A DNA stretch of 47,894 nucleotides from a virus. This document shows, one piece after another, positions 1 through 47,894 of the stretch. Numbering within the stretch: the first letter of the stretch is position 1; each line of letters opens with the position of its first letter. Where the stretch lies: IMG/VR virus record IMGVR_UViG_3300031234_000013; one strand, given 5' to 3'. The notes beneath the pieces are model-generated. The model was given only the letters and a program-made list of their open reading frames with translations, was not told the DNA's origin and did no database searches. Position numbers and translations under genes: made by a program.

Positions 1-127
1 TCCTAACTTTGAAGTAGTTAACTTCGAAGATATGTTACATATTTACACAGGATCATTACCTGTAATGTACAGCCACTGGAGTTTTGGAAGACAGTACATA
101 GAGCTTCATAAGCAATATTTAGCTGAT
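1..127. repeat. Terminal overlap copy A: bases 1-127 are identical to 47768-47894 (circular assembly overlap or terminal redundancy)
   Basis: Direct comparison of the first and last 127 bases of the window shows an exact match. Confidence 0.95.
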
Positions 128-1372
128 AGAATGGGCACAGCATATGAGGTTGTGTTCAATACAAATCCATCACTGTGCTATCTGTTAGAGCATAACTCGC
201 CAACAATGCAGGCTTTAGTTCAATGCCATGCCAGTGTAGGACATTCCAGCTTCTTTAAGAATAACATATACTTTAAAGAACATACCAATGCTAATAGCAT
301 TATGCCTTTCCTTAAGAATATGAAGATATTCATAGAAGAGTGTGAACACCAGCATGGTGCTAAGGAAGTAGAAAGCTTATTGGATATGTGTCACGCCTTA
401 TCTTTGTATGCCATTGACCGTAGACCTATTAGGAATAAGACTAATAAGGAGAAGGAGGCAGTTAGGCTAGAGAGAAGTTTAAATAAAGATCGTGATTATG
501 ACCTTACTCAGCAGCTAGGAGATAAGACTACTAAGTCTGCACCAGGATCTGGAAGACTAAGAGAGGAGAACATACTCAAGTTTATTGGTAAGTTCTCTCC
601 AGCACTTAAACAATGGCAAAGAGATATCATAAGTATATACTGTAAGATTCAACAGTACCTGTATCCTCAAATGCTTACAAAGCTAATGAATGAAGGTTTT
701 GCATCTTTCTGGCATCATACACTAATGACAGATTTAGGAGACTTAGGGTACTTAGAGGCAGGTCAGTCTATAGAATTCTTACACAGCCATTGCTCTGTGT
801 TAAAACAACACGACTTTGATAGCAAATACTACAATGGAGTTAATCCATATAAACTTGGATTTGAGATGTTCAAGGATATAAGACGTATATGTGAGAATCC
901 AACAGAAGAAGATAAGGAATGGTTCCCAGGACTTATAGGTAAGAATTGGATTGAAGAAGTTAAATTTGCAGCTTATAATTTCAAGGACGAGAGTTTTATA
1001 GGGCAATACTTAAGCCCTAAACTAATGAGGGATCTTAAGCTGTTCGTGTTGAACGATTCGTGTGATAATAATGAATATGAAATTACTCATATACACGATG
1101 ATGACGGGTACAAGGAAATAAGAAGTAAGCTATCTAAGCAATACCTATTCGGAAACCATATACCAGATATTTATGTAGAAGGTTGGGACTTCAAAAAGAG
1201 AAGAACTTTATACTTAGTAATTCAAGAACATAATGGTGTTGAGATTAAGGATGATGATACTGGGGCATGTAAGAGTGAAGCTGTAATGGATATGATAAAG
1301 AAGTACTGGCCGTTCCCTGTACACATTAAATACATTAAAACTGACGGTGAGGAAATACCTTTTGCGGAATAA
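2..1372 (+). CDS. spoVR: SpoVR/YcgB family protein, 3' part (456 codons). The 5' part is 47649..47767 and the frame is continuous through the overlap (~496 aa in total)
   Basis: Motifs HWSFG, AYEVVFNTNP, PTMQALVQCHASVGHSSFFKNN and NEGFASFWH align with bacterial YcgB/SpoVR. It follows the DUF444 gene as in yeaGH-ycgB clusters. Confidence 0.9.
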   Translation, partial: PNFEVVNFEDMLHIYTGSLPVMYSHWSFGRQYIELHKQYLADRMGTAYEVVFNTNPSLCYLLEHNSPTMQALVQCHASVGHSSFFKNNIYFKEHTNANSIMPFLKNMKIFIEECEHQHGAKEVESLLDMCHALSLYAIDRRPIRNKTNKEKEAVRLERSLNKDRDYDLTQQLGDKTTKSAPGSGRLREENILKFIGKFSPALKQWQRDIISIYCKIQQYLYPQMLTKLMNEGFASFWHHTLMTDLGDLGYLEAGQSIEFLHSHCSVLKQHDFDSKYYNGVNPYKLGFEMFKDIRRICENPTEEDKEWFPGLIGKNWIEEVKFAAYNFKDESFIGQYLSPKLMRDLKLFVLNDSCDNNEYEITHIHDDDGYKEIRSKLSKQYLFGNHIPDIYVEGWDFKKRRTLYLVIQEHNGVEIKDDDTGACKSEAVMDMIKKYWPFPVHIKYIKTDGEEIPFAE

Positions 1373-1964: not shown

Positions 1965-1965
1965 T

Positions 1966-2073: not shown

Positions 2074-2258
2074 TGATTAAATTACTATTTCCTATAAGAC
2101 ATGAGACTACAAGTCAAGGAAGTGACATGTACTATGTTAGTTTAGACACTAGTTTATATATAAATTTCGATAAAAAGGAATATGTAGATCAATATCCTAC
2201 TTTAAAATCTATAAAAGTTTCAATACTAGGGTTTGGCTTTAGGGCGAATAACTCATGA
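2073..2258 (+). CDS. Hypothetical protein (61 aa)
   Basis: ORF track entry. Start/stop overlaps with both neighbours. Confidence 0.45.
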   Translation: MIKLLFPIRHETTSQGSDMYYVSLDTSLYINFDKKEYVDQYPTLKSIKVSILGFGFRANNS

Positions 2259-2524
2259 AAATGCAATATAAATTATTAACTGTATCGGGCAGTGAGGGTG
2301 CATGTGTGTCATGCAATACACCTTATAGGTTAACTAAAGTTAGTAGTGATAGAGATCATAGAGAAAATGACATATTCGAGATTATGCACACATGTAGGCA
2401 CATAAATAGACCACAGGTAACTAGGAGATTTATAGAAGATGTATGTCTATATATAATAGAACCGGTTAGGGCACGAAGACTTACGCTATTTAAGAAGTGG
2501 AAAAATAGACAAAGAGGTAAATAA
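2255..2524 (+). CDS. Hypothetical Cys/His-containing basic protein (89 aa)
   Basis: ORF track entry. ATGA overlap with the upstream ORF. CxxC plus HTCRH residues. Confidence 0.5.
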   Translation: MKMQYKLLTVSGSEGACVSCNTPYRLTKVSSDRDHRENDIFEIMHTCRHINRPQVTRRFIEDVCLYIIEPVRARRLTLFKKWKNRQRGK

Positions 2525-2525
2525 C

Positions 2526-3401
2526 TTGCAGACGTTACTAATAGATGGTGATATTATATTATATCAAGTAGCATTTGCTATGGAAAAGCCTATGTATGTG
2601 TGTAAAAATGCTATATATAAGAATAAAGGAAAAGCAGACGCTGCTAGTATTAAAAACGGATTTCCTGTAACTAAGCGTGTAGTCCTGGGTACAGAAAAAC
2701 ACTTAAGGGCTAAGTTGGATGCAACACTTAATACATTATTTAAAGAATGTGGTACTAAAAACTATAAATTATTCCTAACTTTTAACGAATTAAGCCCTAA
2801 TTATAGGTTAAAGTTAGCAACTATACTACCATATAAAGGAAATCGTGTTGGAAGCGTTAAGCCACAACACTATAAAAGATTGAAGGAAATATTAGTAAAC
2901 GAGTATAGAGCTATTAAGGTAGAAGGCCAGGAAGCAGATGATTCACTTACTATACACCAAATGGAATCTTTTAGGACTACTGGAAGTTATGAGCGTACAA
3001 TAATATGCTCACTAGATAAAGACTTTAAAATGGTTCCAGGACTACACTACCACCTAACAAGTAAGGTAATATCACTAGTAACTGAAGATGAAGCTATGAT
3101 TAGTTTCTACAGGCAGATACTTATAGGGGATGCTGGTGATAATATACCAGGACTTACTAAGACTCTTAGACTGCAAGGGCGTGTAGAAGAAGCTGATAAA
3201 CTAACACACACACACTATTTAAAGCATTTTAATGAGATTATAGTTGACATGAAACCTGATGATGTGTATAATCATGTATTAGGAATGTATGAAGCCTATG
3301 GATATTCAGATAAGGAATTTCTAGAGATTGGTAACCTATTGTGGTTGAGACGTCACCCAGGACAAATCTGGAGTGAAGATAAAAAGAGAGGTTTAGTATG
3401 A
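2526..3401 (+). CDS. 5'-3' exonuclease / flap endonuclease (PIN-like, PolA N-terminal type). TTG start
   Basis: LLIDGD, GQEADDS, LDKDF and LIGDAGDNIPGL motifs typical of FEN/5'-3' exonucleases. Confidence 0.85.
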   Translation: MQTLLIDGDIILYQVAFAMEKPMYVCKNAIYKNKGKADAASIKNGFPVTKRVVLGTEKHLRAKLDATLNTLFKECGTKNYKLFLTFNELSPNYRLKLATILPYKGNRVGSVKPQHYKRLKEILVNEYRAIKVEGQEADDSLTIHQMESFRTTGSYERTIICSLDKDFKMVPGLHYHLTSKVISLVTEDEAMISFYRQILIGDAGDNIPGLTKTLRLQGRVEEADKLTHTHYLKHFNEIIVDMKPDDVYNHVLGMYEAYGYSDKEFLEIGNLLWLRRHPGQIWSEDKKRGLV

Positions 3402-3616: not shown

Positions 3617-4260
3617 TGGTTAAAATAGTTGCTATATCAGACACACACATGGCACATAGAGACCTTTATAGACTAGTTAAGGGAGACATATTAGTACACT
3701 GTGGAGACTTAACACATAGAGGAAGATCACATGAATATGCAGATGTATTAGAGTTCTTTAGACTACACTGTGCAAGATATAAGCATGTAATATTTATAGC
3801 GGGTAACCACGATTTTGGGTGTAAAGAGTACATGGATAACATGTTACAATGTGGAATGTTCCCAGATAATCTTCATTACCTACATAATGAAAGTAAGGAA
3901 ATAATGGGTATAAAGTTTTTTGGAAGCCCTAACACACCTCCATTTTATGACTGGGCATATATGAGTAATGAGGGAGAACTGTCAAATATATACAGTCTTA
4001 TACCTAAAGATACTCAAGTTCTAATAACCCATGGGCCTGCATTTGGCATATTAGATGTAGAAAGTAGGAACGGTGAGCATTGTGGCAGCACTTCATTACT
4101 AAGAGCAATAGTTGACCTGGACAACTTAAAACATCACCTATTTGGACATATACATGCCTCCAATGGACAACAAGAATCACAAAACGTTACATTTAGTAAC
4201 TGCTCTGTTCTCGATGATAATTATGATATGAAATTTAAACCTACAGTTATTAAGGTATAA
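3616..4260 (+). CDS. Calcineurin-like metallophosphoesterase, MPPED/239FB-like subfamily
   Basis: ISDTH, GDILVHCGDLT, IAGNHD, LITHGP, HCGS and FGHIH motifs in the canonical order. Confidence 0.85.
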   Translation: MVKIVAISDTHMAHRDLYRLVKGDILVHCGDLTHRGRSHEYADVLEFFRLHCARYKHVIFIAGNHDFGCKEYMDNMLQCGMFPDNLHYLHNESKEIMGIKFFGSPNTPPFYDWAYMSNEGELSNIYSLIPKDTQVLITHGPAFGILDVESRNGEHCGSTSLLRAIVDLDNLKHHLFGHIHASNGQQESQNVTFSNCSVLDDNYDMKFKPTVIKV

Positions 4261-4264
4261 TAAA

Positions 4265-4588
4265 ATGTCGTCATGGGAAGAGTTTTTAGCTAATCAAATA
4301 TTTGAAGCTAAATTACCAGAACCAGTTAGGGAGTATAGGTTCCATAAGACTAGAAGATTCAGATTTGATTTTGCGTGGTTAGAACATAAATTTGCAGTAG
4401 AGGTTCACGGACAGGTATGGGGTAGAGGTGGGCACACATCTGGAGCAGGGTTCACTAAGGATAGGCAGAAAATTAACTTAGCTATATTAGATGGCTGGAA
4501 GGTAATGGAGATGACCACAGGTCAGGTTGGAGACTGTTTAGCGATAGGATGGATAAAAGAATATTTTGATAAGTTTGTGGAGAAATAA
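4265..4588 (+). CDS. Small PD-(D/E)xK-type endonuclease (Vsr/DUF559-like)
   Basis: RFDFAW..AVEVHG core resembles the D..E-x-K/H nuclease motif. Size and context fit. Confidence 0.55.
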   Translation: MSSWEEFLANQIFEAKLPEPVREYRFHKTRRFRFDFAWLEHKFAVEVHGQVWGRGGHTSGAGFTKDRQKINLAILDGWKVMEMTTGQVGDCLAIGWIKEYFDKFVEK

Positions 4589-4591
4589 TAT

Positions 4592-4753
4592 ATGATGGAA
4601 TGTTTTTGTAATGAGTGCAACGGAGTACCTATGACTGACTTAGAGACAATAGAAAGATTAACATTAGAGACTGTTAAGTCTTTAGTATTGGATATTAAGG
4701 ATTTAGAGTTAAGAGTGTCACAGTTAGAAGACTTTTTAAATGGTAATACATAA
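4592..4753 (+). CDS. 53-aa protein (CxxC N-terminus, coiled-coil-like tail)
   Basis: GGAG SD ~10 nt upstream. Below the 60-aa track cutoff, read manually. Confidence 0.4.
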   Translation: MMECFCNECNGVPMTDLETIERLTLETVKSLVLDIKDLELRVSQLEDFLNGNT

Positions 4754-4899
4754 TGCTAATACCGTGGAAGTGGGAAAGACTAGATGGAGAGACCTGTAGA
4801 TATAAAGTAATTAATGGGTGGATAGTACTTCATTGGAATATGGCTGGTGAGCATACTTCAGTATTTGTACCTGACGAACAACATATATGGAAAATATAA
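4753..4899 (+). CDS. 48-aa Trp-rich protein
   Basis: TAATG overlap with the upstream ORF. Read manually. Confidence 0.35.
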   Translation: MLIPWKWERLDGETCRYKVINGWIVLHWNMAGEHTSVFVPDEQHIWKI

Positions 4900-4903
4900 T
4901 TAA

Positions 4904-5206
4904 ATGCGAAAACCTGTAATTGTTGGAAAGGCCTTTCAGGAGCAATTAGCATCACAAATAAGGTGGTGGTTTGATCCTATTAATGATGCTAATATTGCGA
5001 AAATAATCGAAGAAAATAAAAGAGTAAGAGCAGAGAAATTATCTCAAGGTTATATTCTAGAAAGTGGTGGCGCATATTATACAGAACAGGATATATTAGA
5101 CGGTAAAACAGGGTTAAATGGAACACTATATCATCTAGGCTATAGAGCACTTGATAATGGTAAATGGCGTAAGGCTACTGAAGAAGAACTAAAGGAAGCA
5201 CAATAA
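4904..5206 (+). CDS. Hypothetical protein (100 aa)
   Basis: ORF track entry, tight packing. Confidence 0.55.
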   Translation: MRKPVIVGKAFQEQLASQIRWWFDPINDANIAKIIEENKRVRAEKLSQGYILESGGAYYTEQDILDGKTGLNGTLYHLGYRALDNGKWRKATEEELKEAQ

Positions 5207-6001
5207 ATGAGAAATTCTACCTTAATAAAGAAAAGTATAGATTCTGGCATAGTGTACGGAACAGTGGACATAGAAAACTGTCCTGCTATAGTGGCTGGTT
5301 GGGGACTATTTGATCAGAACTTTGGAATGGATCAGATACTAACAACTCCTAAAATTACATCAATATCGTACATGAAGGAAACAGATAGTAAGCCTACTAC
5401 ATTAGGGTGGACGTTCAATGAAGATGCGAAGGGTAGTGATACGTCTTTGTTATTAAAGTTCAGCGAATGGGTTAAGGATGTAGATGTTATTATAGGACAG
5501 AATACAGATGCTTTTGATATAAAAATGATTAATTGGCGTATTAACGAATTAGGCCTACCACCTATTGAGTGGCCACAGTTCTCATTAGATATTCTTAAGT
5601 TGAGCCGTAAGGTGTTCAGACCACTATCACATAAATTAGACTTTAGAAGTAGAACTTATGGATTTGGAGGTAAGATAGATCAGACAATGAAACAGATTAT
5701 GAAAGTAATGGATGGAGATGAGAAAGAACAGGCCGAACGTATGCGTTATAACGCTAAGGACGTATTGGACACTCGTAAGGTGTTCTGGAGGGAGGTAGAT
5801 TCATACAAGCTTCCTGTAGCTTTTGTTAAGCACTTAGAACGTATTATAAAGGGTGATAAGCCGTTCTGTAAACACTGTCAGTTTAATAAGAAGAACAAGT
5901 TTGATATAACACAGTTCAGAGTTAAACTTAAGGATACAAAGAACTACAAGTTTAGATACCAATGCAACAGATGTGACTATATATGGGATTCTAAGAAATG
6001 A
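5207..6001 (+). CDS. DEDD (DnaQ-like) 3'-5' exonuclease with a C-terminal CxxC..CxxC zinc ribbon
   Basis: DIEN (Exo I), GQNTDAFDIKM (Exo II), YNAKDV (Exo III), CKHC..CNRC. Confidence 0.7.
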   Translation: MRNSTLIKKSIDSGIVYGTVDIENCPAIVAGWGLFDQNFGMDQILTTPKITSISYMKETDSKPTTLGWTFNEDAKGSDTSLLLKFSEWVKDVDVIIGQNTDAFDIKMINWRINELGLPPIEWPQFSLDILKLSRKVFRPLSHKLDFRSRTYGFGGKIDQTMKQIMKVMDGDEKEQAERMRYNAKDVLDTRKVFWREVDSYKLPVAFVKHLERIIKGDKPFCKHCQFNKKNKFDITQFRVKLKDTKNYKFRYQCNRCDYIWDSKK

Positions 6002-6982: not shown

Positions 6983-7163
6983 CATGCAAAAAGAATTAAA
7001 ATATATTCATAATCAAGAATTATATGCTGAGGAGTTAAATAAATACTCAGGTTTTAATGGTAGATGGTCTAAGGTGGAATTGATACTTAGACAGAAGCAT
7101 CGTAAATTCCTAATAGAGATAATAGATTATTTAGAACAAATAAATAATGAGGAGTTAGAGTAA
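6963..7163 (+). CDS. Hypothetical protein (66 aa)
   Basis: ORF track entry. Confidence 0.45.
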   Translation: MTWRVNNMQKELKYIHNQELYAEELNKYSGFNGRWSKVELILRQKHRKFLIEIIDYLEQINNEELE

Positions 7164-7534
7164 TGCCCGAGTTTATTGCCCATGATCCATCATTAAGTTG
7201 TCCATATACTGACTGTATAGTTCCAGGATGCACAGAGGTTAAAGTATTAGATTTACAAAGACTTCGTTATGACCTTATGCCTGTCGAATTTGATGACGTA
7301 GTACAGGTGTTACAACATTCAGCACATTCAGGTAAGTATGGTGAGAATGATTGGTTAAATGGTGTTAACTTCGAACCAGAGAAGAACCTAGCATCTATTA
7401 AGCGTCATATTAGAGATTATAGGTTAGGCAATAGAGCTGATAAAGATAATGGACTACACCCCATGTTAATGGTTGCGTGTAGAGCATTAATGCAGTATAC
7501 ACTAGATGTAAGGAGTGAAAAAGATGTTAGATAA
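7163..7534 (+). CDS. Possible all-alpha dNTP pyrophosphohydrolase (DUF5664/MazG-like)
   Basis: GKYGENDW..ASIKRHIRDY..DNGLHPMLMVACRALM resembles the phage dATP/dGTP diphosphohydrolase family. Confidence 0.5.
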   Translation: MPEFIAHDPSLSCPYTDCIVPGCTEVKVLDLQRLRYDLMPVEFDDVVQVLQHSAHSGKYGENDWLNGVNFEPEKNLASIKRHIRDYRLGNRADKDNGLHPMLMVACRALMQYTLDVRSEKDVR

Positions 7535-8850: not shown

Positions 8851-10251
8851 TTAGTTTCCTTGATTGTCACTGCTTGCATATTGTTGTTGTTGGTCTACTT
8901 GTGCAGACTGTGGAGGCTGTTGAACCTGTTGTTGCTGTTGTGCTGCTGTTGCTTGTGCATACTGATCAGGGGAGTAAGGGTCTTTACCGTTCTCTATTTG
9001 AACAATTCCCTGCATTACTTTAGTACGTGTTGCAGTATTAGACATATCTATAGGTTTATCAGGGTCTATACCTGCAGACTTGGCTAATGTATTAACATAT
9101 CCTTGTGTATCATTTTCACTAGATGGTGCATAGTGGCTTATAATAGTATTTAAGGACTGACCATTGTACTTAGTAGTTAGTAGATTAGATAAGGCTCCTA
9201 AACCTTGTTCTGGAGTTGCAAAACTTGCAAATCTAGGATCTGCACCTTTAGTGAACCCTGGTTGACTTTGTGTAAACCCTCCTATCTCCAAATTACCAGG
9301 ATTGTTATTACGAACACCTCTAGGAAGATTATGGTTGTTAAACTGGTCTTGTAATTGTTGTGGATCCACTTGAGTATTTCCTGATTTGCTGCTAGAAGTC
9401 TGCTGTGTACTAGAGGATGGTTGTACACCATTAATAGCGTCTTGTCTTGCTTTATTGGTACTTTGTTGTTCTTGTTGAGCCTGCTTCATTGCTGCAGCCC
9501 CGTAACTACCAGGTAAGTGTACATTAGCAAAGTCGCCATAGGGGCCAAATGATTTCCATTTTGTTCCTGATTCTAGACCATACTTAGGAGCTAGTGTAGC
9601 CATAGCATTTGCAAATGCTTTAACCTGTGATGGATAGTGCTTATCATCCCAACCATAACGAGAATCAACAATATCTAATGCCTTACCTGTAAGGTGCGCA
9701 CTATTCATTGTTTGAGAATTACCTTCTCTGATCTTTTGGGCCTGTGCTTCAGGAGTCATTCTTCCCTCAGCCACTACTGGTGAGAATCCTTGAGCTTTTA
9801 ACTCTGCCATTAATCCTTTAGCGCCTTGTAACATGACAGGGTCTATACCTCTCATATTAGGCTTATAAGAGCTTTCTTTTGCCATTGCTTCAGCATCAGG
9901 ATCTATAGACTGAGCTGCCTGTTGTCCTAATAATGACTGCGATGTATTAGTTTGCGGTGTCATACCTAGCTGATTCTGTACGTAACCTCCTATCAATCCT
10001 TGATTAGGCTGCTGTGCAGGTGTTACCGCAGGTGCTGTAGAAGGTTTAGCAGCAAATGCTTTTGTAAGTCCAGAAACTAGACCATTAAGACCTGACAGCA
10101 TTGACCCTGTACCTTGCTGTGCTGAAGCAGTAGGTGCTGATTTTCCTACTACACCTTGGTGTAAACCTTGAGCTAGAGGTTGTAGTAAACCGAAATTAAT
10201 TCCACCAGATTCTGGTAATTGTTGTTGTTGAGGATTAGATCCACTTAGCAT
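8851..10251 (-). CDS. Virion-associated protein with a central M15-type (VanY-like) peptidase domain and a C-terminal RNNNPGN domain. Q-rich ends
   Basis: SAHLTGKALDIVD (SxHxxGxAxD), WKSFGPYGDFANVH and RGVRNNNPGNLE..HYAPSSENDT. Confidence 0.7.
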   Translation of the reverse strand: MLSGSNPQQQQLPESGGINFGLLQPLAQGLHQGVVGKSAPTASAQQGTGSMLSGLNGLVSGLTKAFAAKPSTAPAVTPAQQPNQGLIGGYVQNQLGMTPQTNTSQSLLGQQAAQSIDPDAEAMAKESSYKPNMRGIDPVMLQGAKGLMAELKAQGFSPVVAEGRMTPEAQAQKIREGNSQTMNSAHLTGKALDIVDSRYGWDDKHYPSQVKAFANAMATLAPKYGLESGTKWKSFGPYGDFANVHLPGSYGAAAMKQAQQEQQSTNKARQDAINGVQPSSSTQQTSSSKSGNTQVDPQQLQDQFNNHNLPRGVRNNNPGNLEIGGFTQSQPGFTKGADPRFASFATPEQGLGALSNLLTTKYNGQSLNTIISHYAPSSENDTQGYVNTLAKSAGIDPDKPIDMSNTATRTKVMQGIVQIENGKDPYSPDQYAQATAAQQQQQVQQPPQSAQVDQQQQYASSDNQGN

Positions 10252-11915
10252 TATTGTCCACTCCCCATTGTTCCAGAAGCTATTTGACCAGCTGTTATTG
10301 ATAACCCTTTACCTATAACCTGATTCAACACTTGAGCTGCTTTAGTCCCTGAGAATTTAGATAAATTCTGTAGTGTAGACTGTCCTATAGGTGTCTGGGA
10401 TAATGCTTTAACTCCATACACAGCTCCTATTGATAACGCTGCTAATGGATGTCCTGCACCAAGTTCAGTAGCGCCAGCTGCTATAGCTCCTAGTCTTGTC
10501 AAATTATTATCTGTGAATCTTGCTACTGAGTTTAAACCATGAGCAGCTTCTACCGCCTTATTTAACCCGTCCATTGTTCGTTTAGCGTCAATCCCTAATA
10601 CTCTATCCATGGTTGGTTTCCATTTAGATAGGTTAGCCTGTAATTGTGGTATAGACAACATATTACCACTAGCATCGCTTAATACTTTATTTATTATGTG
10701 AGAATCAATTATATTCTGTCCTTGTTTATTCAATACAGCCTTAAACCCATTTATATCATTAACCCTTCCTGGCAGTGTTTTAGTGTTTAATAGATTATCC
10801 AGTAAAGCATTGGCAGTATGTGGATCTTTAACAACGGCTGCTGGATCTAAAGCATTAGCTACAGCATCCATGCCATATGATCTCATTGGTAATATTGTAC
10901 CTTTCCATATAGCATTAGCTTCGTTATATTTATCTAGTGCTCCTACTTTTATAGCTTCAGATTGTAAATGAGACTCTTCTAAATCTCCTAAACCTCTTAG
11001 ATCCTTACCCATTTCTGATGTTACTGAATTAGAAGTAAACTTGGTATAATTAGAACTTAATATCTTGCGAGCATCATGTAGTCCTGCTAAATCTGTAGCA
11101 TTATTAGATACATTTATAGTATCCTTTAATACTTGTTTTTGTAGTCCATTTAAACTATCTGAGTATTTATCTAATATTGACTGAGCATTACTAGCAATAG
11201 GTGTTCCAGAAACATCTCCTGGCATTCCTCTGAACTGTTCAAAGGCCTTATTAGCTACTGCCATACCAGTATTCCAAGTATTTGCTGATGCCTGCGCTGC
11301 AGCTTCATTGGTGCTGTATCCCATCAATTTAGAACTTATAGTGTCTAATACGCCTTGTATTTTAGCAGGTAGCAATCCAGCACCAATAGTTTGAGTTGCT
11401 ATAGTGCTAGCGCCCTCAACACCAGCTCCAACAACTGTTCCAGTAACTCCGGCTATAAGTTTTTGTGAAGCATCTCCATCTACTGCTGTTGCTGAAGTTG
11501 TGAAGTTATTAGCTATAAAAGCTGCAGAATCTGCTCCTACAGATCCTACATCCATTGCGGCCATGGCACCTCTAGCTGTTAGTCCTGCAGCTCCACCAGC
11601 AGCAATTGCACCAGCCATTCTACCAGCAAATGCTGTGTTTGGATTATCATGCATTGCCTGACCAGCAGGTGTTTGCGAAGCTTCAGGTGCTCCTACAGCA
11701 CGTGCTACAGGCCCTCCTGGCCCTAAACCTACTGCAGACGCTGCTCCACCACCAAATGCGTTAATTTTGTCTAAAATACCATCATTAGTAGGCTGTGCTG
11801 GCTGATTAGCAGAATCTCCCTGATCAGACATATACTTACTAAAGTCCTGAGCAGATTGAGCAGCCTGCGGCGTAGTTTGAGGTTGTGGCATGTACTGATC
11901 AAAAGAATCTGGCAT
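10251..11915 (-). CDS. Ala/Gly-rich internal virion (ejection) protein candidate
   Basis: 554-aa low-complexity protein in a run of overlap-coupled large genes distal to the tail genes. Confidence 0.5.
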   Translation of the reverse strand: MPDSFDQYMPQPQTTPQAAQSAQDFSKYMSDQGDSANQPAQPTNDGILDKINAFGGGAASAVGLGPGGPVARAVGAPEASQTPAGQAMHDNPNTAFAGRMAGAIAAGGAAGLTARGAMAAMDVGSVGADSAAFIANNFTTSATAVDGDASQKLIAGVTGTVVGAGVEGASTIATQTIGAGLLPAKIQGVLDTISSKLMGYSTNEAAAQASANTWNTGMAVANKAFEQFRGMPGDVSGTPIASNAQSILDKYSDSLNGLQKQVLKDTINVSNNATDLAGLHDARKILSSNYTKFTSNSVTSEMGKDLRGLGDLEESHLQSEAIKVGALDKYNEANAIWKGTILPMRSYGMDAVANALDPAAVVKDPHTANALLDNLLNTKTLPGRVNDINGFKAVLNKQGQNIIDSHIINKVLSDASGNMLSIPQLQANLSKWKPTMDRVLGIDAKRTMDGLNKAVEAAHGLNSVARFTDNNLTRLGAIAAGATELGAGHPLAALSIGAVYGVKALSQTPIGQSTLQNLSKFSGTKAAQVLNQVIGKGLSITAGQIASGTMGSGQ

Positions 11916-38409: not shown

Positions 38410-38985
38410 ATGCCACAACGTACAAGCTCTTGTGATGATTATAATGACGATGGTAACTCATTAGTATATATAGTAAATAATCCTAATGTGCAGAATGTAT
38501 ATTCAATATACCTAAATAAAGAAGTTGGTGAGGCAGAACACTATCGCAAAATGTTTAACTTACTAAGAACATCATCCAGCGATGATAGATTTATAATTTA
38601 CTTGAATAACTTTGGTGGATATGTACACACAGGAATTGATATTATAAATTCTATGAAAGCTTGTAGAGGTAAGACAGTTGCAGTGGTTAGTGGCCCATTA
38701 TATTCTATGGCACCATTAATAGCTTTAAGTGCTGATAAATTAATAATAGAGGCAAATACGTTCTTCATGTTCCACGATTATAGTGGAGGAACAAGTGGTA
38801 AAGGACACGAACAACATGCTTCTATTACACATGAAAAGCCTTTCTTTGACGAAATGTTCCATTCAGTAACAAATAAGTTTCTAACACCTAAGGAGATTAG
38901 AGGAGTCAATAAGGGAAGAGATTTGTACTTGAAACGAGAAGACATTATGAAACGACTACGTAAAATTAAGAGGCTGGTTGAATAA
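38410..38985 (+). CDS. ClpP/S14-like serine peptidase homolog
   Basis: IYLNNFGGY..GPLYSMAP..FMFHDYSGG parallels the ClpP INSPGG..SMG..IHQP pattern. Paralog of 1347..1964. Confidence 0.7.
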   Translation: MPQRTSSCDDYNDDGNSLVYIVNNPNVQNVYSIYLNKEVGEAEHYRKMFNLLRTSSSDDRFIIYLNNFGGYVHTGIDIINSMKACRGKTVAVVSGPLYSMAPLIALSADKLIIEANTFFMFHDYSGGTSGKGHEQHASITHEKPFFDEMFHSVTNKFLTPKEIRGVNKGRDLYLKREDIMKRLRKIKRLVE

Positions 38986-41197: not shown

Positions 41198-41493
41198 TGA
41201 CTTTGACAATTAGAAATTTAAAGAATCAACGTAAAAGAGTTAAAGGAATGCCAAAGTATTTCCAAAATGAAAGAGTTAAGTACTTAAAAAGTATTACATT
41301 GACTATACGAATACTTCAGAATGATAGGTTAGTTAAAATGATAAAGGAAGGACTGGCTAGAACAGTTACTAAACAGGTTAATAATGTTAAGCCTAAATCA
41401 TTCTATAAAACTGGGGTGTTTAAAGTTAAATTGGCACATCAATATGTTAAGCATAGACCTGTTATGAGATTAAGTACTAGGACTGGCGGATAA
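41197..41493 (+). CDS. Basic 98-aa protein with an internal repeat (TLTIRNLKNQR / TLTIRILQNDR)
   Basis: ORF track entry, overlap-coupled between the helicase and polymerase genes. Confidence 0.55.
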   Translation: MTLTIRNLKNQRKRVKGMPKYFQNERVKYLKSITLTIRILQNDRLVKMIKEGLARTVTKQVNNVKPKSFYKTGVFKVKLAHQYVKHRPVMRLSTRTGG

Positions 41494-43421
41494 TGAAGCA
41501 GTACATTGTAGATTTAGAAACTAATGGATTGTTACAAGAAGTTACTAAAATACACTGTATATCTGTAGTGGATTTAAACTCGTCTTGGTCTAAACTATAC
41601 TTAGAAAAAGATGCACAAGAGTTCATTAAACTAATTGATAGTCCTGATGTAGAGTTAATTGGCCACAACATATTTAATTATGATTTAAAGGTAATAGAAA
41701 AGTTATGTAATTGGAAGCCACATAAAGGACAGAAAATACATGACACTTTTATATTGGCTCAACTTTTGTTCTCAGATTTAAAGAATGAAGATCCTAAATC
41801 GGCACATTCATGGACTGGTAAAATATTTAGTAAAAGAGATACAGGATCACATAGTTTAAGAGCGTGGGGTCAAAGAATCTGCCAGTATAAGGGAGATTAT
41901 GACGGAGGCTGGGAAACTTATAATGATGATATGGGATCTTATTGTATTAAGGACACGTATACTACAAAAGGACTATTTCAGTTTCTAATGTCACAAATTA
42001 CCAATAAATTACTAACTACTGAAGCAATTGAATTAGAATACTCAATATCTCCAATTTTAGCACGTCAACAAGCATATGGGGTACTATTTGATGTGGAAAA
42101 AGGACACAAGCTTCTTGATAAACTTACGTCTTCACTAGTTGACAGTCGTTGGAAGCTTCAAGAGATATTCAAACCCAGGTTCATTAGTAAAGGTGAATTT
42201 ACTCCAAAACGTGACGACAGAAAGCGTGGATATAGGGCTGGTTCAAAGATCACAAAAATAGCATTAGAAGAATTTAATCCTGGCAGCCGTGTTCAGATAG
42301 TTTCTAGATTAAAGCAGCAGTTTAACTGGAATCCTGAGGAGTTCACGGAAGCTGGTAACGTTAAAATGAATGAGGATATTATAGATGCTCTTCCATTTAA
42401 GGAATTATTGCCGTTAAAAGAGTATCTAACCATAACCAAGCGGATATCTCAGTTAGAGACAGGTAAACAGGCGTGGCTGAATAAGATTGGCAAGGATGGA
42501 CGTATTAGGGGTGGTATTATGCAGAATGGTACTACTACAGGACGTATGAGTCACTTTAGCCCCAACTTAGCACAGGTTCCTAGCAGTGAAAGCTTATACG
42601 GTGCTGAATGTAGAGAACTGTTCACTGTTCCCGAACACAGAACAATGATTGGTGTCGACGCAGATGCATTAGAGATGAGATGCTTGGCAGGGTACCTTAC
42701 ACAACTGGATGGTGGCAGGTTCTTAACTTCTCTTTTACAAGGAACTAAAGAAACTAAAACGGATCCTCACAGTATTAACGCAGAAGCTATGGGTATTGAA
42801 CGAGAAGCAGCCAAAACAGTGTTCTATGCTTGGCTATATGGAGCTAAAAATGCTAAGGTTGGTAAAATATTGCTAGAAAATGGTGTGAATTTTGAAGATT
42901 ATGTGGTAGACTTTAGAAAGAATGCGGCTGGAATGGCTCAGTGGGCTAAAGAGCAAGGATCAGATAAATCTAGTGCTTACTGGGAATGCTGGGTAGCAGG
43001 TAAGGAATGTTTAAAGAGGTTCGGTGATAGAATTCCAGAATTAACACAACTAAAGAATGAAATACATAAAAGAGTACAAGAAGTAGGATTCATTAAAGGA
43101 TTGGACGGTCGTAAATTGTTTATGAGATCGGAACACGCAGAGCTTAATACAGTATTGCAGAGTGCAGGAGCGCTTTTAATGAAAAAAGCTCTATATATTG
43201 CAGATACTGAGCTACAAAAACAGTTTTTACCAGGTAAAGATTACGAATTTGTATTAAATGTTCATGATGAGTGGCAATTAGAGGTTGACAAATCAATTAA
43301 CTGTGCTATAGTTAAAGATATATTAGAAAATAGTATTAAGCAGGCTGGGGAGTATTTTAAGTTCCCAGCGCCAATGAAGGGAAACAGTCAAGAAGGCAGT
43401 AACTGGGCACAGACTCACTAG
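41493..43421 (+). CDS. Family A DNA polymerase with a 3'-5' exonuclease domain (T7 gp5-like)
   Basis: VDLETNGL, HNIFNYDL, YCIKDT, DADALEMR (motif A), AKTVFYAWLYGA (motif B), NVHDEW (motif C). Confidence 0.92.
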   Translation: MKQYIVDLETNGLLQEVTKIHCISVVDLNSSWSKLYLEKDAQEFIKLIDSPDVELIGHNIFNYDLKVIEKLCNWKPHKGQKIHDTFILAQLLFSDLKNEDPKSAHSWTGKIFSKRDTGSHSLRAWGQRICQYKGDYDGGWETYNDDMGSYCIKDTYTTKGLFQFLMSQITNKLLTTEAIELEYSISPILARQQAYGVLFDVEKGHKLLDKLTSSLVDSRWKLQEIFKPRFISKGEFTPKRDDRKRGYRAGSKITKIALEEFNPGSRVQIVSRLKQQFNWNPEEFTEAGNVKMNEDIIDALPFKELLPLKEYLTITKRISQLETGKQAWLNKIGKDGRIRGGIMQNGTTTGRMSHFSPNLAQVPSSESLYGAECRELFTVPEHRTMIGVDADALEMRCLAGYLTQLDGGRFLTSLLQGTKETKTDPHSINAEAMGIEREAAKTVFYAWLYGAKNAKVGKILLENGVNFEDYVVDFRKNAAGMAQWAKEQGSDKSSAYWECWVAGKECLKRFGDRIPELTQLKNEIHKRVQEVGFIKGLDGRKLFMRSEHAELNTVLQSAGALLMKKALYIADTELQKQFLPGKDYEFVLNVHDEWQLEVDKSINCAIVKDILENSIKQAGEYFKFPAPMKGNSQEGSNWAQTH

Positions 43422-43430
43422 AGGTATTGT

Positions 43431-43667
43431 ATGAAAGTTTTTATAGTATTAGAATATGAAGGAGATGTGTCTAGAATATTAGATGTGTATGCGGATTTAA
43501 ACTCAGCACAGGTTAGGGTTAATAGGCTTGAACACGACCATGAAGTTCCTGGTCGAACTTTTCACCTATTAACCAAGTCAGTTAAAGAGCTTCACGGTCT
43601 AAAGTTCAATGTAGATGGTAAGTTTAGAACACTAATTCCATATGGTAAATTAAGAGGATCAAAATAA
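43431..43667 (+). CDS. Hypothetical protein (78 aa)
   Basis: ORF track entry. Confidence 0.55.
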   Translation: MKVFIVLEYEGDVSRILDVYADLNSAQVRVNRLEHDHEVPGRTFHLLTKSVKELHGLKFNVDGKFRTLIPYGKLRGSK

Positions 43668-44230
43668 TGGCTATTGCAAAGAAGATTAAGCAGGAGGAAG
43701 GTATATCTCTACCTTTAGGTAATCATATAGCCTTACTATCAGGCGTAATACATCTAGGAGTACAACGTAATACCTATAATAATGAAGAGTCGTTAAAAGA
43801 TCAAATACTTTTACAGTTTGAATTACAGGACGAGCTATTACCAAATGGAGCACCCCTTACTGTAAGTAAGACTATAAATAATTCAGCTTCCGGCCCTAAA
43901 TCTGGACTTGTGTTAGTAGGAAAAGCGTTTGGTGTGGATATGCAGAATGATGGTTTAGACTTCGAAGCTCAATTAGGCAAGCCGGTATTATTAGAAATTA
44001 AGCCTCAAGAAAAGGATAAAAGCAAACAATCTGTAGGAGCTGTATCCCCACTACCTAAGGTTCTTAAAGGTTCAGTTAAGCCCTTGGTAACCAGTCCTAA
44101 GATTTATTTTGATGTAGAGGAAATTACGCCTACGCAACTGGAAGAATTGCCACCATGGATTGTAAATATAATTGCTAAGCGTATTTCCGAGCCAAAAGAA
44201 AATAAGCCATCAAGCCACGATATGTTGTAA
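43667..44230 (+). CDS. Conserved-looking replication-module protein (possible ssDNA-binding role)
   Basis: 187 aa next to the polymerase. GVIHLGVQ..ILLQFEL pattern. The function is inferred only from context. Confidence 0.4.
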   Translation: MAIAKKIKQEEGISLPLGNHIALLSGVIHLGVQRNTYNNEESLKDQILLQFELQDELLPNGAPLTVSKTINNSASGPKSGLVLVGKAFGVDMQNDGLDFEAQLGKPVLLEIKPQEKDKSKQSVGAVSPLPKVLKGSVKPLVTSPKIYFDVEEITPTQLEELPPWIVNIIAKRISEPKENKPSSHDML

Positions 44231-44243
44231 TTGGAGCTACTAA

Positions 44244-46223
44244 ATGAGTATATTAGCTAAAGCAGGTAAGCGTCTTACATCTACAATTGAGAATGAGATG
44301 TCATTACAAGAGTATTTAGATCTGTGTAAGACTGATAAACTTGCATTTGCTACACCAGCAGAACGTTTGTTGGCAGCTATTGGACAAGTTGAGATGTTGG
44401 ATACAAGAAAGGATGACAGATTAAGCCGTATATTCAGTAACGAAACAGTTCCAACTTATCCTAGTTTCAATAAGATATTTGGATTAGAACATACAATTAA
44501 GGATATTGCAGGATTTGTAAGACACGCCGCTCAAGGCCTTGAAGAGCGTAAGCAGATTCTATATCTTTTAGGGCCTGTTGGTAGTAGTAAATCATCAATT
44601 GTGTCTATTATTAAGAGGCTAATGGAGTCAGTGCCTTTCTACGCCCTTAAATTCCATAAAGAAGCTGTATATGGTAAAGATAAGGACGGTAAAACTATAC
44701 TATTAGAGGATGAAGTTAATCAAATAAGCCCTATTAATGATAACCCATTATCCTTATTCACTAAGGAAGATGCAGAAGAACTAGGTATTCCAGAACGTTA
44801 TTTCGGAGTTATACCTAGCCCATGGTTGACTAAGCGTATTACTGAAGTTGCTGGGGATTTAACTAAATTCACAGTTGTTAAAGTATACCCTAGTGAGGCT
44901 CACCAGTTAGCTATTAGTCATATTGAACCTGGCGATGAAAATAATCAAGATATTTCATCATTAGTTGGTAAACTTAACATTAGAGAGATAGAGAGCTATG
45001 CACAAAACGACCCTGACGCCTATAGCTTCTCTGGAGGATTGTGTCTCGGCAATAGAGGTATTACAGAATTTGCGGAAATGTTCAAATCACCAATTAAATC
45101 ACTTAATCCGCTCCTCGAAGCAACTCAGTCAGGATTTTATAAAGGAACTGAGTCAATTTCCGCCATACCGTTTGAAGGTATTATTATCGCCCATAGTAAT
45201 GAGAGCGAATGGCAGAAGTTCCGTAATGACAAACGGAATGAGGCACTCATTGATAGAATATTTATCGTTAGAGTTCCTTACTGCCTTAGATACTCAGAGG
45301 AAACTAAAATCTACGAAAAAATGCTCAAAGAAAGTAGCTTAGGAACAGCTCCAGTAGCTCCTAAGACGCTAGAAACAATGGCACAGTTCTCAGTTATGAG
45401 TCGATTGTTTAAGTCTAAACATAGCCAGCCTACTGTTAAGATGAAGATTTATAATGGAGAGAATTTAAAACATACTAATCCAGATGCTAAAAATGTACCT
45501 GAATACCATGTTGAAGCTCACGAGGCTAATGCAGATGAAGGATTTAGTGGTATCAGTACACGATTCGCATTTAAGATATTAGCTCAGACATTTAATTATA
45601 GTCAGGACGAAGTAAGTGCTAACCCTCTACACTTGCTTATGATATTATCAAAGCGTATTAAGGAAGAACATTTAGCTAAGGAAGACGAATTACTGTACTT
45701 AGAATTAATTGATGTACTTTATAAGGAGTTTCACAAGACATTTGATAAGGATGTTAAGAAGAGCTACATAGAGTCATATCAAGACTATGGTCAGAACATA
45801 TTTGATAAGTACATAATATACGCTGATCACGTGTTAAATGAGAATGATTATAGGGATGAGATGACAGGTTTGTCTATGACTCCTCAGGACTTAGAGAAGT
45901 ACCTGGAAGAGATAGAAACACCAGCTAATGTAACTAATAAAAAGGATTTTAGACATGAAGTTGTAAGATACTGCTTGAAATATCAAGTATCTAATAAAGG
46001 AAAGAATCCACCATGGGGTAGTTACAATAAAATAAGGGAAGTTATTGAGAAGAAGATATTCGCTAACATGGACGACATGTTACCAATTATCAGTAATACA
46101 GAGAAAGCTAACGCTAGTGACAAGAGAGCACACCAGGAGTTTGTTACTAGAATGCAGACTCTAGGGTATACTCCTAAGATGATTCAAATTCTTATTGACT
46201 GGTATATTAGATCTCCGAGGTAG
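44244..46223 (+). CDS. prkA: PrkA/YeaG family AAA+ serine protein kinase
   Basis: SLQEYLDLCK, AERLL, RLSRIFSN, HAAQGLEERKQILYLLGPVGSSKSS (Walker A), GGLCLGNRGITEFAEMFK. Collinear with E. coli YeaG over ~650 aa. Confidence 0.92.
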   Translation: MSILAKAGKRLTSTIENEMSLQEYLDLCKTDKLAFATPAERLLAAIGQVEMLDTRKDDRLSRIFSNETVPTYPSFNKIFGLEHTIKDIAGFVRHAAQGLEERKQILYLLGPVGSSKSSIVSIIKRLMESVPFYALKFHKEAVYGKDKDGKTILLEDEVNQISPINDNPLSLFTKEDAEELGIPERYFGVIPSPWLTKRITEVAGDLTKFTVVKVYPSEAHQLAISHIEPGDENNQDISSLVGKLNIREIESYAQNDPDAYSFSGGLCLGNRGITEFAEMFKSPIKSLNPLLEATQSGFYKGTESISAIPFEGIIIAHSNESEWQKFRNDKRNEALIDRIFIVRVPYCLRYSEETKIYEKMLKESSLGTAPVAPKTLETMAQFSVMSRLFKSKHSQPTVKMKIYNGENLKHTNPDAKNVPEYHVEAHEANADEGFSGISTRFAFKILAQTFNYSQDEVSANPLHLLMILSKRIKEEHLAKEDELLYLELIDVLYKEFHKTFDKDVKKSYIESYQDYGQNIFDKYIIYADHVLNENDYRDEMTGLSMTPQDLEKYLEEIETPANVTNKKDFRHEVVRYCLKYQVSNKGKNPPWGSYNKIREVIEKKIFANMDDMLPIISNTEKANASDKRAHQEFVTRMQTLGYTPKMIQILIDWYIRSPR

Positions 46224-46225
46224 TT

Positions 46226-46420
46226 ATGGCTAAGTTTAAAGTCTCATTAAAAGAGCTAGTTAGATTAGTTAGACAGTCTTCACAGGACATTGTATTAGCT
46301 GCGCAGGCTTTGGAGTCAGGGTTAGAGGGATCTTTTCCTGACAGCTTGTTACAAGACCTTAAAGATGATATATTTAGATATGAACAACTAGTTAAAGAAC
46401 GTCAAAAAAGGAACGTATAA
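46226..46420 (+). CDS. 64-aa protein inserted between prkA and the DUF444 gene
   Basis: ORF track entry. TAATG overlap with the next gene. Confidence 0.55.
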   Translation: MAKFKVSLKELVRLVRQSSQDIVLAAQALESGLEGSFPDSLLQDLKDDIFRYEQLVKERQKRNV

Positions 46421-47652
46421 TGCCTCTTATTATTGACAAGAGATTTCTACCTAAAGGAGCTACAATAGGATCTCGTCAAAAATTCATTGATAGGTATAAA
46501 GACTCTATTAAAAAGAAAATAAGGGAAATGATAGATAAGAACTCTATTAAGGATTTTAATAACGGCTCTAAGAAGATTAAGATTAATATAGATGACTTAG
46601 ACAGTCCTAATTTTGAATTAGACTCTACTACTGGTAACAAAGATCACGTACTTATAGGTAATAAGACTTTTAAGAAAGGAGACACTATACCAAGACCTTC
46701 AAGAGGAAGTGGTAAATCTGGAAAGTCTGGAGGTAATTCTGGAGACTCAAACGATGGTTTCGAGTTCACACTTACTGAGGAAGAATTCGCTAACCTATTT
46801 TTCGAGGATTTAGAGCTTCCAGATCTTATTAAAAGACAGTTTAGTGTTGACACTTTTGAAATACAGCCTGCTGGGTATAGCAAGAGTGGAGGGCCTAGCA
46901 GTTTAAACGTAAAAAGGACTATTCTAAATAGCTTAGGACGTAGATTTATACAGAGAAAAAAGGATCAATTAATATTAGAACTAAATGATATGGAAACTGC
47001 AACGGATTCTGACACTAGTGAGGAATTTGTATTAGTACCTAAAAAGAAAGTTCAATTCATTGAAGAAATGGATTTAAGGTACAATTTTAGAGATAAGGTA
47101 GAGCAGCCCACAACTAAGGCAGTAATGTTCTGCATGTTGGACGTAAGTGGAAGTATGGGAGAGTATGAGAAGGATATAGCTAAACGATTCTTCATTCTTC
47201 TTAATCTGTTCCTTAAACGAAATTACGAACAAGTAGATGTTGTGTTCATAAGGCACTCAGATACAGCAGAAGAAGTAGACGAGAAGAAGTTTTTCTATGA
47301 TACATGGTCTGGTGGTACAGTAATAAGCTCTGGATATGAAAAAATAAAGGATATTATAAACACTAGATACAATCCTGAAATGTGGAATGTATACATAGCT
47401 CAGGCTAGTGATGGTGAGAATTTCGAATATGACAATGATTTAATGACTGATTTATTAGTTAATAGAATATTACCAAGTGTTCAGTATATGGCCTATATAA
47501 ATATAGGATCTAGGAATTCAAGTAATAATGATTTTCTTAAAATACTTGACAATGTATCTGATAGTAATGTAAACTTTAAGAGTAAAGTAGTTATTAATAG
47601 TAAGGATATTTTCGAAGTATTCAGAAGCCTATTTAAGAAGGGGAAGGTATGA
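46420..47652 (+). CDS. yeaH: YeaH/YhbH family protein (DUF444, vWA-like C-terminus)
   Basis: IDKRF..RQKFIDRYK, Gly/Ser-rich linker, FEFTLTEEEFANLFFEDLELPDL, MLDVSGSMGE. Confidence 0.9.
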   Translation: MPLIIDKRFLPKGATIGSRQKFIDRYKDSIKKKIREMIDKNSIKDFNNGSKKIKINIDDLDSPNFELDSTTGNKDHVLIGNKTFKKGDTIPRPSRGSGKSGKSGGNSGDSNDGFEFTLTEEEFANLFFEDLELPDLIKRQFSVDTFEIQPAGYSKSGGPSSLNVKRTILNSLGRRFIQRKKDQLILELNDMETATDSDTSEEFVLVPKKKVQFIEEMDLRYNFRDKVEQPTTKAVMFCMLDVSGSMGEYEKDIAKRFFILLNLFLKRNYEQVDVVFIRHSDTAEEVDEKKFFYDTWSGGTVISSGYEKIKDIINTRYNPEMWNVYIAQASDGENFEYDNDLMTDLLVNRILPSVQYMAYINIGSRNSSNNDFLKILDNVSDSNVNFKSKVVINSKDIFEVFRSLFKKGKV

Positions 47653-47894
47653 AAAAAGTTAAAAATAGCCCTTTCCTACTAGATGATTGGACTGGGCAAT
47701 CATTAGAAGATGGTTGGAACATAATAGCTAAGCTGGCTAAGGAAAAGTACAATTTAGACTGGTATAATCCTAACTTTGAAGTAGTTAACTTCGAAGATAT
47801 GTTACATATTTACACAGGATCATTACCTGTAATGTACAGCCACTGGAGTTTTGGAAGACAGTACATAGAGCTTCATAAGCAATATTTAGCTGAT
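47649..47894 (+). CDS. spoVR: SpoVR/YcgB family protein, 5' part (runs off the window end and continues at 2..1372)
   Basis: ATGA overlap with the DUF444 stop. The last 127 nt duplicate the window start in the same frame. Confidence 0.9.
   Translation, partial: MKKVKNSPFLLDDWTGQSLEDGWNIIAKLAKEKYNLDWYNPNFEVVNFEDMLHIYTGSLPVMYSHWSFGRQYIELHKQYLAD
47768..47894. repeat. Terminal overlap copy B (identical to 1-127)
   Basis: Direct comparison. Confidence 0.95.

Follow-up and report, generated by a model that had tools for sequence, protein, structure and literature searches.

Why should a small phage carry a set of genes that bacteria use to survive starvation? The question is raised by the IMG/VR virus record IMGVR_UViG_3300031234_000013, a stretch of 47,894 nucleotides (nt) that was analyzed whole and is hereafter called the window. 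Three adjoining genes on its plus strand correspond to bacterial PrkA/YeaG, YeaH/YhbH (DUF444) and SpoVR/YcgB. In bacteria, the cofitness of yeaG, yeaH and ycgB exceeds r = 0.7 in six organisms, and a single pathway has been proposed for them (bioRxiv 10.1101/072470). In nitrogen-starved Escherichia coli, YeaG and YeaH together form a "metabolic brake" that lengthens the recovery lag, and long-term viability depends on both (PMC4664914, PMC10954441). YeaG has been reported as a kinase and Bacillus subtilis PrkA as an ATP-dependent protease (PMC9512850), neither activity was detectable for Bacillus anthracis PrkA, which oligomerized with ATP (PMC13001217), and YeaH and YcgB were still called uncharacterized in July 2026 (bioRxiv 10.64898/2026.07.20.739708). 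An earlier reading of the letters of this DNA, here called the original prediction, proposed that a complete trio in the bacterial gene order lies in the replication arm of a lytic-looking phage. Full-length profile matches and the tight packing of the genes in that arm bear this out. We regard the identity of the proteins and the evolutionary history set out below as close to certain, and we take all three genes of the bacterial module to be present here as whole, functional copies. The novelty lies in finding that the trio forms a fixed core block, syntenic and under strong constraint, throughout a deep lineage of small virulent-looking phages.

Identity and integrity of the trio

Profile hidden Markov models for the families concerned, a check that the original prediction had proposed, matched all three proteins with E-values of 1e-124 to 1e-142 for AAA_PrkA, DUF444 and SpoVR, and 1.2e-56 for the PrkA C-terminal domain. 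PrkA covers 357 of the 358 positions of Pfam AAA_PrkA (PF08298; 4.5e-142, 473.8 bits against a cut-off of 25) and also carries the C-terminal domain (PF06798; 192.7 bits, cut-off 25). The second protein spans profile positions 2-417 of 418 in DUF444 (PF04285; 5.3e-130, 434.7 bits, cut-off 27), and the third spans positions 1-404 of 407 in SpoVR (PF04293; 2e-124, 415.9 bits, cut-off 27). Against the NCBIfam models, PrkA scored 852 bits with the equivalog NF011999 (cut-off 576) and YeaH scored 443.5 bits with NF003707 (cut-off 396). SpoVR reached 515.9 bits with the equivalog NF008737, under the cut-off of 679; judged by its sequence, the phage protein is a member of the SpoVR family that is too diverged to be an equivalog of enterobacterial YcgB. 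PrkA also matched the Protein Data Bank (PDB) entry 9xip, "Serine protein kinase", at 2e-46, and a sequence search of the PDB with the DUF444 protein returned nothing useful. The exact window proteins are present in the protein database as P0121 and P0241, the latter being SpoVR.

The names SpoVR, YhbH and PrkA derive from Bacillus sporulation, the PHROG family phrog_10856 is annotated "sporulation protein", and viral spoVR has been reported from viromes as a "sporulation AMG" (auxiliary metabolic gene; PMC8940887). One might therefore suppose that the phage genes push a spore-forming host into or through sporulation. However, the best-fitting models are of the Proteobacteria type (PRK15455, PRK05325.1-2 and PRK11767), and the spore-type YhbH model TIGR02877 gave 232.6 bits, well under its equivalog cut-off of 467.95. 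Furthermore, the nearest cellular homologues all belong to non-sporulating Pseudomonadota (PrkA 51-54% identical). A role in sporulation is therefore very improbable.

The open reading frames (ORFs) of the region and their flanking genes are laid out as follows, with lengths in amino acids (aa).

41493..43421, plus strand: family A DNA polymerase (PolA; phrog_17 DNA polymerase, 9e-115), the upstream boundary of the inserted block
43667..44230, plus strand: lineage-specific ORF of 187 aa directly 5' of PrkA (phrog_862, function unknown, 1.8e-9)
44244..46223, plus strand: PrkA/YeaG homologue, 659 aa, with an AAA+ ATPase domain and a PrkA C-terminal (kinase-like) domain
46226..46420, plus strand: accessory ORF of 64 aa, occupying a variable slot between PrkA and DUF444
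46420..47652, plus strand: YeaH/YhbH (DUF444) homologue, 410 aa, with a C-terminal vWA/MIDAS domain
47649..47894, plus strand: SpoVR/YcgB homologue, N-terminal part; the reading frame resumes at window position 128
1..1372, plus strand: remainder of the SpoVR/YcgB homologue; nt 1-127 duplicate 47768-47894, and the joined ORF has 496 aa
1347..1964, plus strand: ClpP/NfeD-like ORF directly 3' of SpoVR (phrog_1827 "ATP-dependent protease", 1.2e-5; weak NfeD1b_N match)
2526..3401, plus strand: 5'-3' exonuclease, FEN-like (Pfam 5_3_exonuc_N, 1.1e-4), the downstream boundary of the inserted block

The coordinates and lengths of the trio and of the 64-aa ORF agree exactly with those given before, including the roughly 496 aa of SpoVR when joined across the ends of the window. 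A scripted exact match confirmed that 47768-47894 is identical to nt 1-127, a direct repeat of 127 nt that marks the assembly as circular or circularly permuted; with one repeat copy taken out, the genome closes to a circle of 47,767 nt. As 127 is a common largest k-mer of de Bruijn assemblers, and an overlap of this length is typical of a circular molecule assembled at k = 127, the repeat is probably an assembly overlap rather than a true terminal repeat. In the same part of the window ARAGORN called its only tRNA, a 92-nt tRNA-Phe at 47747-47838 inside the SpoVR ORF; Rfam found no tRNA at gathering score, and we rejected the call as most likely a false positive.

The genes are tightly packed. 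The PrkA stop codon TAG is separated by 2 nt from the ATG of the 64-aa ORF, and both of the overlaps described earlier, TAATG between the 64-aa ORF and DUF444 and ATGA between DUF444 and SpoVR, are present in the sequence. A Shine-Dalgarno-like purine run lies 5' of each ORF of the trio region, no plus-strand terminator is predicted within the replication arm, and consensus scans for a trio-specific promoter or terminator gave matches only at chance level. This layout is compatible with the suggestion that the trio is expressed with the replication or middle genes. Because the genes sit inside the replication block with no intervening terminator, they are probably co-expressed with the replication genes and made early to mid infection.

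Are the proteins likely to be active? In PrkA, the Walker A motif runs from G110 through PVGSS to K116 and S117, and both K116 and S117 are invariant in 129 aligned sequences; the counterpart of this lysine in B. subtilis PrkA is K108. Invariant across the lineage is also K444, which aligns to YeaG K426, the residue mutated in a catalytically defective YeaG (K426A; PMC10954441). The P-loop of the lineage reads GPVGSSKS and that of bacteria GPVGGGKS, two glycines before the lysine being replaced by serines. We considered this change as a phage-specific inactivation and rejected it, given that the lysine and serine are invariant and that the solved cellular PrkA 9xip reads GSAKS, with S-A at the same glycine positions. 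At 20 PrkA positions bacteria and lineage are each nearly fixed, yet for differing residues. The window PrkA has 659 aa, compared with 635-640 aa in most relatives, because its AAA domain has gained about 22 aa (residues ~138-163, window 44655-44730) in an insertion that is private to this genome, although P0002 shares part of it.

In YeaH, the MIDAS residues (DxSxS...T...D) D241, S243, S245, T300 and D331 are invariant in 74 sequences. An AlphaFold2 model of the protein had a pLDDT (predicted local distance difference test) of 76, and its C-terminal half matched vWA domains, including CMG2, the integrin I domain and the MDN1 MIDAS, at a Foldseek probability of 1.0. The invariant residues of SpoVR include H65, W66, E89, N93, H116, H121, N270, E271, G272, Q309, N321 and Y323, which hold a conserved His/Glu-rich set (H65, E89, H116 and H121 among them) and the motif N270-E271-G272. 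Its AlphaFold2 model is confident (pLDDT 87; pTM, the predicted template modeling score, 0.85), no PDB fold matched it (best E 0.74), and it has a single distant match in BFVD.

Three SpoVR homologues from the lineage (P0251, P0254 and P0262; 790-793 aa) carry an insert of about 295 aa. The insertion site corresponds to residues 274/275 of the window SpoVR (NEGFA/SFWHH), in the most conserved motif of the protein. The insert begins with a Cys right after NEGFA, ends in TGN before SFWHH, and contains a TxxH block and a LAGLIDADG-like stretch; Pfam Intein_splicing matched it only below threshold (E 0.003). From these sequence features the insert is probably an intein with a homing endonuclease.

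A phage lineage with the trio as a core block

The window is of phage origin in both arms. The plus-strand arm encodes a T7-like primase-helicase, the family A polymerase, exonucleases and a metallophosphatase, and the other arm encodes the large terminase, portal, major head protein, tail proteins and lysis proteins. Its closest cultured relatives are podoviruses with a terminase identity of only about 35-41%, and no near-identical DNA was found among cultured phages. Neither Pfam and PHROG scans of the tested ORFs nor a tblastn search with a relative's integrase found an integrase, and the genome looks virulent, as had been proposed. The trio occupies about 9-10% of the 47.8-kb genome.

When 5.8 billion proteins were searched with PrkA, about 46 clusters with identities of 54-93% were recovered. 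Most of them come from contigs no longer than about 51 kb, and in about 20 the longest contig measures 45-51 kb. Ordinary bacterial PrkA ranks next, at about 54% and lower. Searches with DUF444 and SpoVR gave the same picture with about 46 clusters each. Twelve related contigs were compared with the window, eight of them retrieved from cluster matches, one (L050) from a JGI metagenome and three (L078, L079 and L084) from IMG/VR; their PrkA is about 54-93% identical and most come from genomes of about 46-51 kb. The common order is primase-helicase, PolA, an ORF of about 190 aa (except in L077 and L084), PrkA, a slot, DUF444, a second slot, SpoVR and 5'-3' exonuclease. Two of the contigs are truncated: L075 starts a short way upstream of PrkA, and L050 breaks off within SpoVR. 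Between SpoVR and the exonuclease there are 0-2 further ORFs, and the exonuclease follows the trio in all 11 relatives whose contig extends that far.

The outgroup consisted of 38 IMG/VR phages found via PolA at 31-40% identity, and the trio is absent from all of them. Where outgroup contigs extend far enough, the exonuclease homologue lies between a few hundred nt and about 2.5 kb behind PolA, and this proximity leaves no room for the trio block. As outgroups that have no trio keep the exonuclease close behind PolA, the block was most likely inserted in a single ancient event, between PolA and the exonuclease gene, and then co-inherited vertically. The trees are in line with this sequence-based account. 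The trio-bearing genomes form one bipartition in a neighbor-joining PolA tree, and for both DUF444 and SpoVR the lineage comes out as a single clade. In the tree of PrkA, one clade unites 41 members, and the nearest neighbors of the basal members are still within the lineage. Copies from the Ralstonia jumbo phage RsoM2USA, from Thermus phages and from other IMG/VR records fall outside. The question raised earlier, whether the three genes were acquired together, is answered by their co-divergence: among 19 linked genomes, Mantel correlations between the three proteins were 0.85-0.89, and none of 2000 permutations was as high.

Within the replication arm PrkA is the most conserved gene in every relative. 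Identities to the window across relatives are as follows.

PrkA: about 54-93%
PolA: 45-81%
primase-helicase: 33-85%
DUF444: 35-85%
SpoVR: 41-85%

Against the closest relative, the number of nonsynonymous substitutions per site (dN) is 0.037 for PrkA, 0.138 for PolA and 0.111 for the primase-helicase. These comparisons support strong purifying selection on the three genes since their uptake. Because the lineage keeps the trio at the same spot, as tightly conserved as its own DNA polymerase, the phage evidently needs it.

Given that the genes are of a bacterial type, could the locus be an assembly chimera of phage and bacterial DNA, or the trio decaying passenger DNA? Contigs of this kind can be misassigned, as one lineage contig was binned into an archaeal genome: P0031 and P0165, a lineage-type PrkA and DUF444 pair (64% and 55% identity), stand in NCBI on a 9.7-kb contig of a "Nitrososphaeraceae archaeon" metagenome-assembled genome, which is most likely a misbinned phage contig. 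Nevertheless, the junctions are identical in the 12 independent contigs, which come from JGI, NCBI, ENA and Logan. The GC content, the GC content at third codon positions and the codon usage of the trio match those of the replication genes (codon-frequency r = 0.91), and composition does not shift at 44.2 kb or at 1.4 kb, the two places that the original prediction had named for a possible join. Synteny and unbroken composition thus exclude a chimera. In addition, every ORF is uninterrupted, start codons overlap the preceding stop codons, and conservation exceeds that of the polymerase, so that an artefact of either kind is scarcely credible.

Some members depart from the window in gene content. 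In L073, positions 4027-5749 between the primase-helicase and PolA encode an RNA ligase and a tyrosine recombinase of the Phage_integrase family, and L077 has small ankyrin-repeat ORFs at 422-616 and 10224-10427. Because of these genes, lifestyle and host may vary within the lineage. In several members PolA is split or has an HNH gene behind it.

The trio as such is already known in phages, from PHROGs, which holds families for all three proteins, from RsoM2USA, from the Thermus phages YS40 and TMA, and from IMG/VR. The searched literature contained no analysis of it as a phage module, and literature searches on PrkA structure and on yeaG in phage found nothing relevant. In IMG/VR, 191 stretches encode PrkA, and the database survey that had been suggested found the full ordered trio in 76 of the 84 loci examined, as well as in all lineage members. 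Many of the IMG/VR trio loci may be jumbo phages or the host flanks of proviruses. RsoM2USA has a complete trio in the same order (ORF30-29-28), and PrkA of the jumbo phages (RsoM2USA and the megaphages LR745206 and LR7565xx, the megaphages being compared by PrkA match only) is 48-50% identical to that of the window. However, jumbo phages have genomes of 340-640 kb in which accessory genes are common, and their trio has other neighbors. The proteins of RsoM2USA lie outside the lineage clade, and its trio was therefore acquired separately; the paper describing that phage lists PrkA and SpoVR separately and notes no module (PMC8504454). Phages phiYS40 and TMA and their relatives, 150-kb myoviruses of the thermophile Thermus, have homologues of all three families (YS40_056, 057 and 059, with SpoVR and "serine kinase" annotated), but at only 22-29% identity and in the order DUF444, SpoVR, hypothetical gene, PrkA. 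A further case is the 30.8-kb "complete genome" of Enterobacter phage LAU1 (MN688132.1), which at positions 1-3308 has YeaG and YeaH beside tail-fiber genes and no SpoVR. It looks like a prophage excised with host flank and not a phage-borne trio; the absence of SpoVR is expected, because enterobacterial ycgB lies elsewhere.

Compared with the bacterial module, the lineage copy consists of the same three families in the same order, each with all its domains at full length. Invariant in it are the Walker A lysine, the YeaG K426 equivalent, the MIDAS and the SpoVR motifs, and its genes are co-inherited. It differs in lying inside the replication block of a virulent-looking genome of about 48 kb, in its P-loop, in having variable small ORFs or homing endonucleases between the genes, in a SpoVR that scores below the NCBI equivalog cut-off, and in proteins that are only about 40-54% identical to any cellular homologue.

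Variable slots and neighboring genes

The 64-aa ORF was correctly placed by the original prediction, both in its coordinates and in its junction with DUF444. It occurs, however, only in this genome and in the closest relative, L047 (91% identity, dN 0.09), and has no family match in Pfam, PHROGs, NCBIfam or PADLOC. Other relatives have an HNH endonuclease, a DUF6899 protein, unrelated small ORFs or nothing at all between PrkA and DUF444. As the ORF is limited to two genomes and the contents of the slot vary, we rejected it as a fourth component of the module; it is an accessory gene. The second slot, between DUF444 and SpoVR, is also filled in some members. At L048 11914-12369 and in the matching slots of L047, L073, L074, L076 and L077, the occupants include an HNH endonuclease, a DUF6899 protein and unrelated ORFs of 29-113 aa. 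By these sequence comparisons both inter-gene gaps of the trio are insertion hot spots.

For the 187-aa ORF upstream of PrkA, neither Pfam nor the PDB gave a match. Of the 12 related contigs, 10 have a homologue (23-89% identity) immediately in front of PrkA, the exceptions being L077 and L084, in which none was detected; it is absent from all PrkA loci outside the lineage. Homologues of the ClpP/NfeD-like ORF occupy the same position behind SpoVR in L047, L048, L074 and L077, the copy in L074 with a weak CLP_protease match. In the window this ORF, read from an ATG at 1425, has a signal-peptide-like N-terminus (MATVIFVLLSANKAHA/G), and this ATG is the likely true start. A second ClpP/NfeD-like serine-protease ORF lies in the plus-strand arm at 38410-38985 (Pfam CLP_protease, 1.5e-10), and L047 additionally carries a Peptidase_M17 gene.

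The plus-strand arm ends with a conserved ORF (7163-7534) that has homologues in all lineage loci and contains the N-terminal domain of dATP/dGTP diphosphohydrolase (PF18909, 1.9e-12). Phages with modified bases have this domain in their nucleotide-pool enzymes, but no ORF of the size of PurZ is evident here.

Possible roles of the trio during infection

Given the evidence for an intact and needed module, what may it do? The ancestor of this uncultured podovirus-like lineage (genome sizes about 46-51 kb) most likely acquired the three genes together, probably from a member of the Pseudomonadota. From the layout, the host RNA polymerase would transcribe them along with the replication genes, and their translation would be tightly coupled. 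Family knowledge suggests that PrkA would act as an AAA+ motor driven by ATP, with a kinase-like domain at its C-terminus. YeaH may dock through its vWA/MIDAS metal site on PrkA or on its substrates, by analogy with other AAA+/vWA pairs, and SpoVR, with its conserved His/Glu-rich site and unsolved fold, would be the third obligatory partner. Acting together, the trio would impose or control a starvation state in which host growth metabolism is halted and a nutrient-poor cell is kept alive and productive until the phage has replicated. As a whole, from identity and origin to mechanism and starvation control, we judge this account somewhat likelier to be right than wrong. Its last step, that the phage imposes or controls a starvation state of the host, is an analogy with the bacterial module that we put a little short of even.

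A stronger form of the account would make the trio an insulated, phage-tuned starvation brake, as indispensable as the replication enzymes, with which the phage infects starved or near-dormant cells in nutrient-poor habitats, sets their metabolic state and keeps them alive through a long latent period. We consider this form doubtful.

The position of the genes might instead indicate that the module acts on the phage's own machinery, as an AAA+/vWA/SpoVR machine that remodels or assembles replication or other phage proteins. The trio always lies inside the replication block, from PolA to the 5'-3' exonuclease, with the lineage-specific ORF of about 190 aa directly upstream in most members, and PrkA is more conserved than the polymerase. 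Pairs of AAA+ and vWA/MIDAS proteins elsewhere are protein-remodeling chaperones, and the Foldseek matches include the MDN1 MIDAS. As in the MoxR-type pairs RavA-ViaA and CbbQ-CbbO and in midasin (MDN1), an AAA+ ATPase gene adjoins a gene with a complete vWA MIDAS; however, PrkA is a family of its own with an extra kinase-like domain, and a third partner, SpoVR, is obligatory. The likeness would thus be one of working principle and not of membership, and B. anthracis PrkA has been placed in AAA+ clade III, not with MoxR (PMC13001217). Moreover, thousands of bacteria that lack phage replication genes use this trio as a stress module complete in itself (bioRxiv 10.1101/072470), the outgroup phages share the replication genes but not the trio, and its neighbors differ in jumbo and Thermus phages. 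An action on the phage's own proteins is therefore unlikely.

Alternatively, the trio could serve counter-defense, blocking or pre-empting an abortive-infection or dormancy response, for example by overriding host PrkA-YeaH-SpoVR signaling or toxin-antitoxin modules. The action of E. coli YeaG leads to repression of the toxin-antitoxin modules mqsRA and dinJ-yafQ (PMC4664914), the 20 lineage-fixed differences in PrkA could insulate it from host partners or let it act as a decoy, and the gene placement suits early or middle expression. Nevertheless, neither the four ORFs of the region nor three neighboring ORFs matched PADLOC-DB 2.0 at E <= 0.01, all catalytic and metal-binding residues are retained, which argues against a pure decoy, and the searched literature contained no link of the trio to phage defense. 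We hold this alternative to be quite improbable.

Several points weigh against the account that we prefer, control of the host starvation state by a module taken up once. The bootstrap value of the trio-bearing clade in the PolA tree is only 41/100, and all trees are neighbor-joining trees. Even against the closest relative the synonymous rate (dS) is saturated, which makes dN/dS rough and leaves only dN and amino acid identity informative. In a scan of GTDB species-representative genomes the sole matches were ordinary bacterial trios at 51-54% identity; none of the genomes contained a contig of the lineage, and the scan did not identify the host. The role on the phage side is inferred from layout and family knowledge, and the biochemistry of PrkA itself is disputed (kinase vs protease, PMC9512850; neither in B. 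anthracis, PMC13001217). A metabolic brake seems counter-productive for a lytic phage, and it is just as conceivable that the module works the other way round or has phage proteins as its targets. Finally, the phenotypes of bacterial trio mutants vary by species (bioRxiv 10.1101/072470), which weakens the transfer of function from E. coli.

Control of host starvation by the phage trio, if true, would have consequences for the bacterial module as well, which is among the most widespread bacterial stress modules of unexplained mechanism. The compact, co-evolving phage copies would then offer a direct handle on the targets of YeaG, YeaH and YcgB, on their mechanism and on the unsolved SpoVR fold, including the key SpoVR motif that is marked by the intein insertion in some relatives. 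The phage triplets are a natural experiment that lends itself to co-variation analysis, modeling of the complex, and deletion or expression during infection. They also allow the interpretation of viral "sporulation AMGs", spoVR among them, to be corrected. That a lineage devotes roughly a tenth of its genome to the trio, and keeps PrkA tighter than its polymerase, suggests that the module may be usable to control physiology from outside the regulation of the cell.

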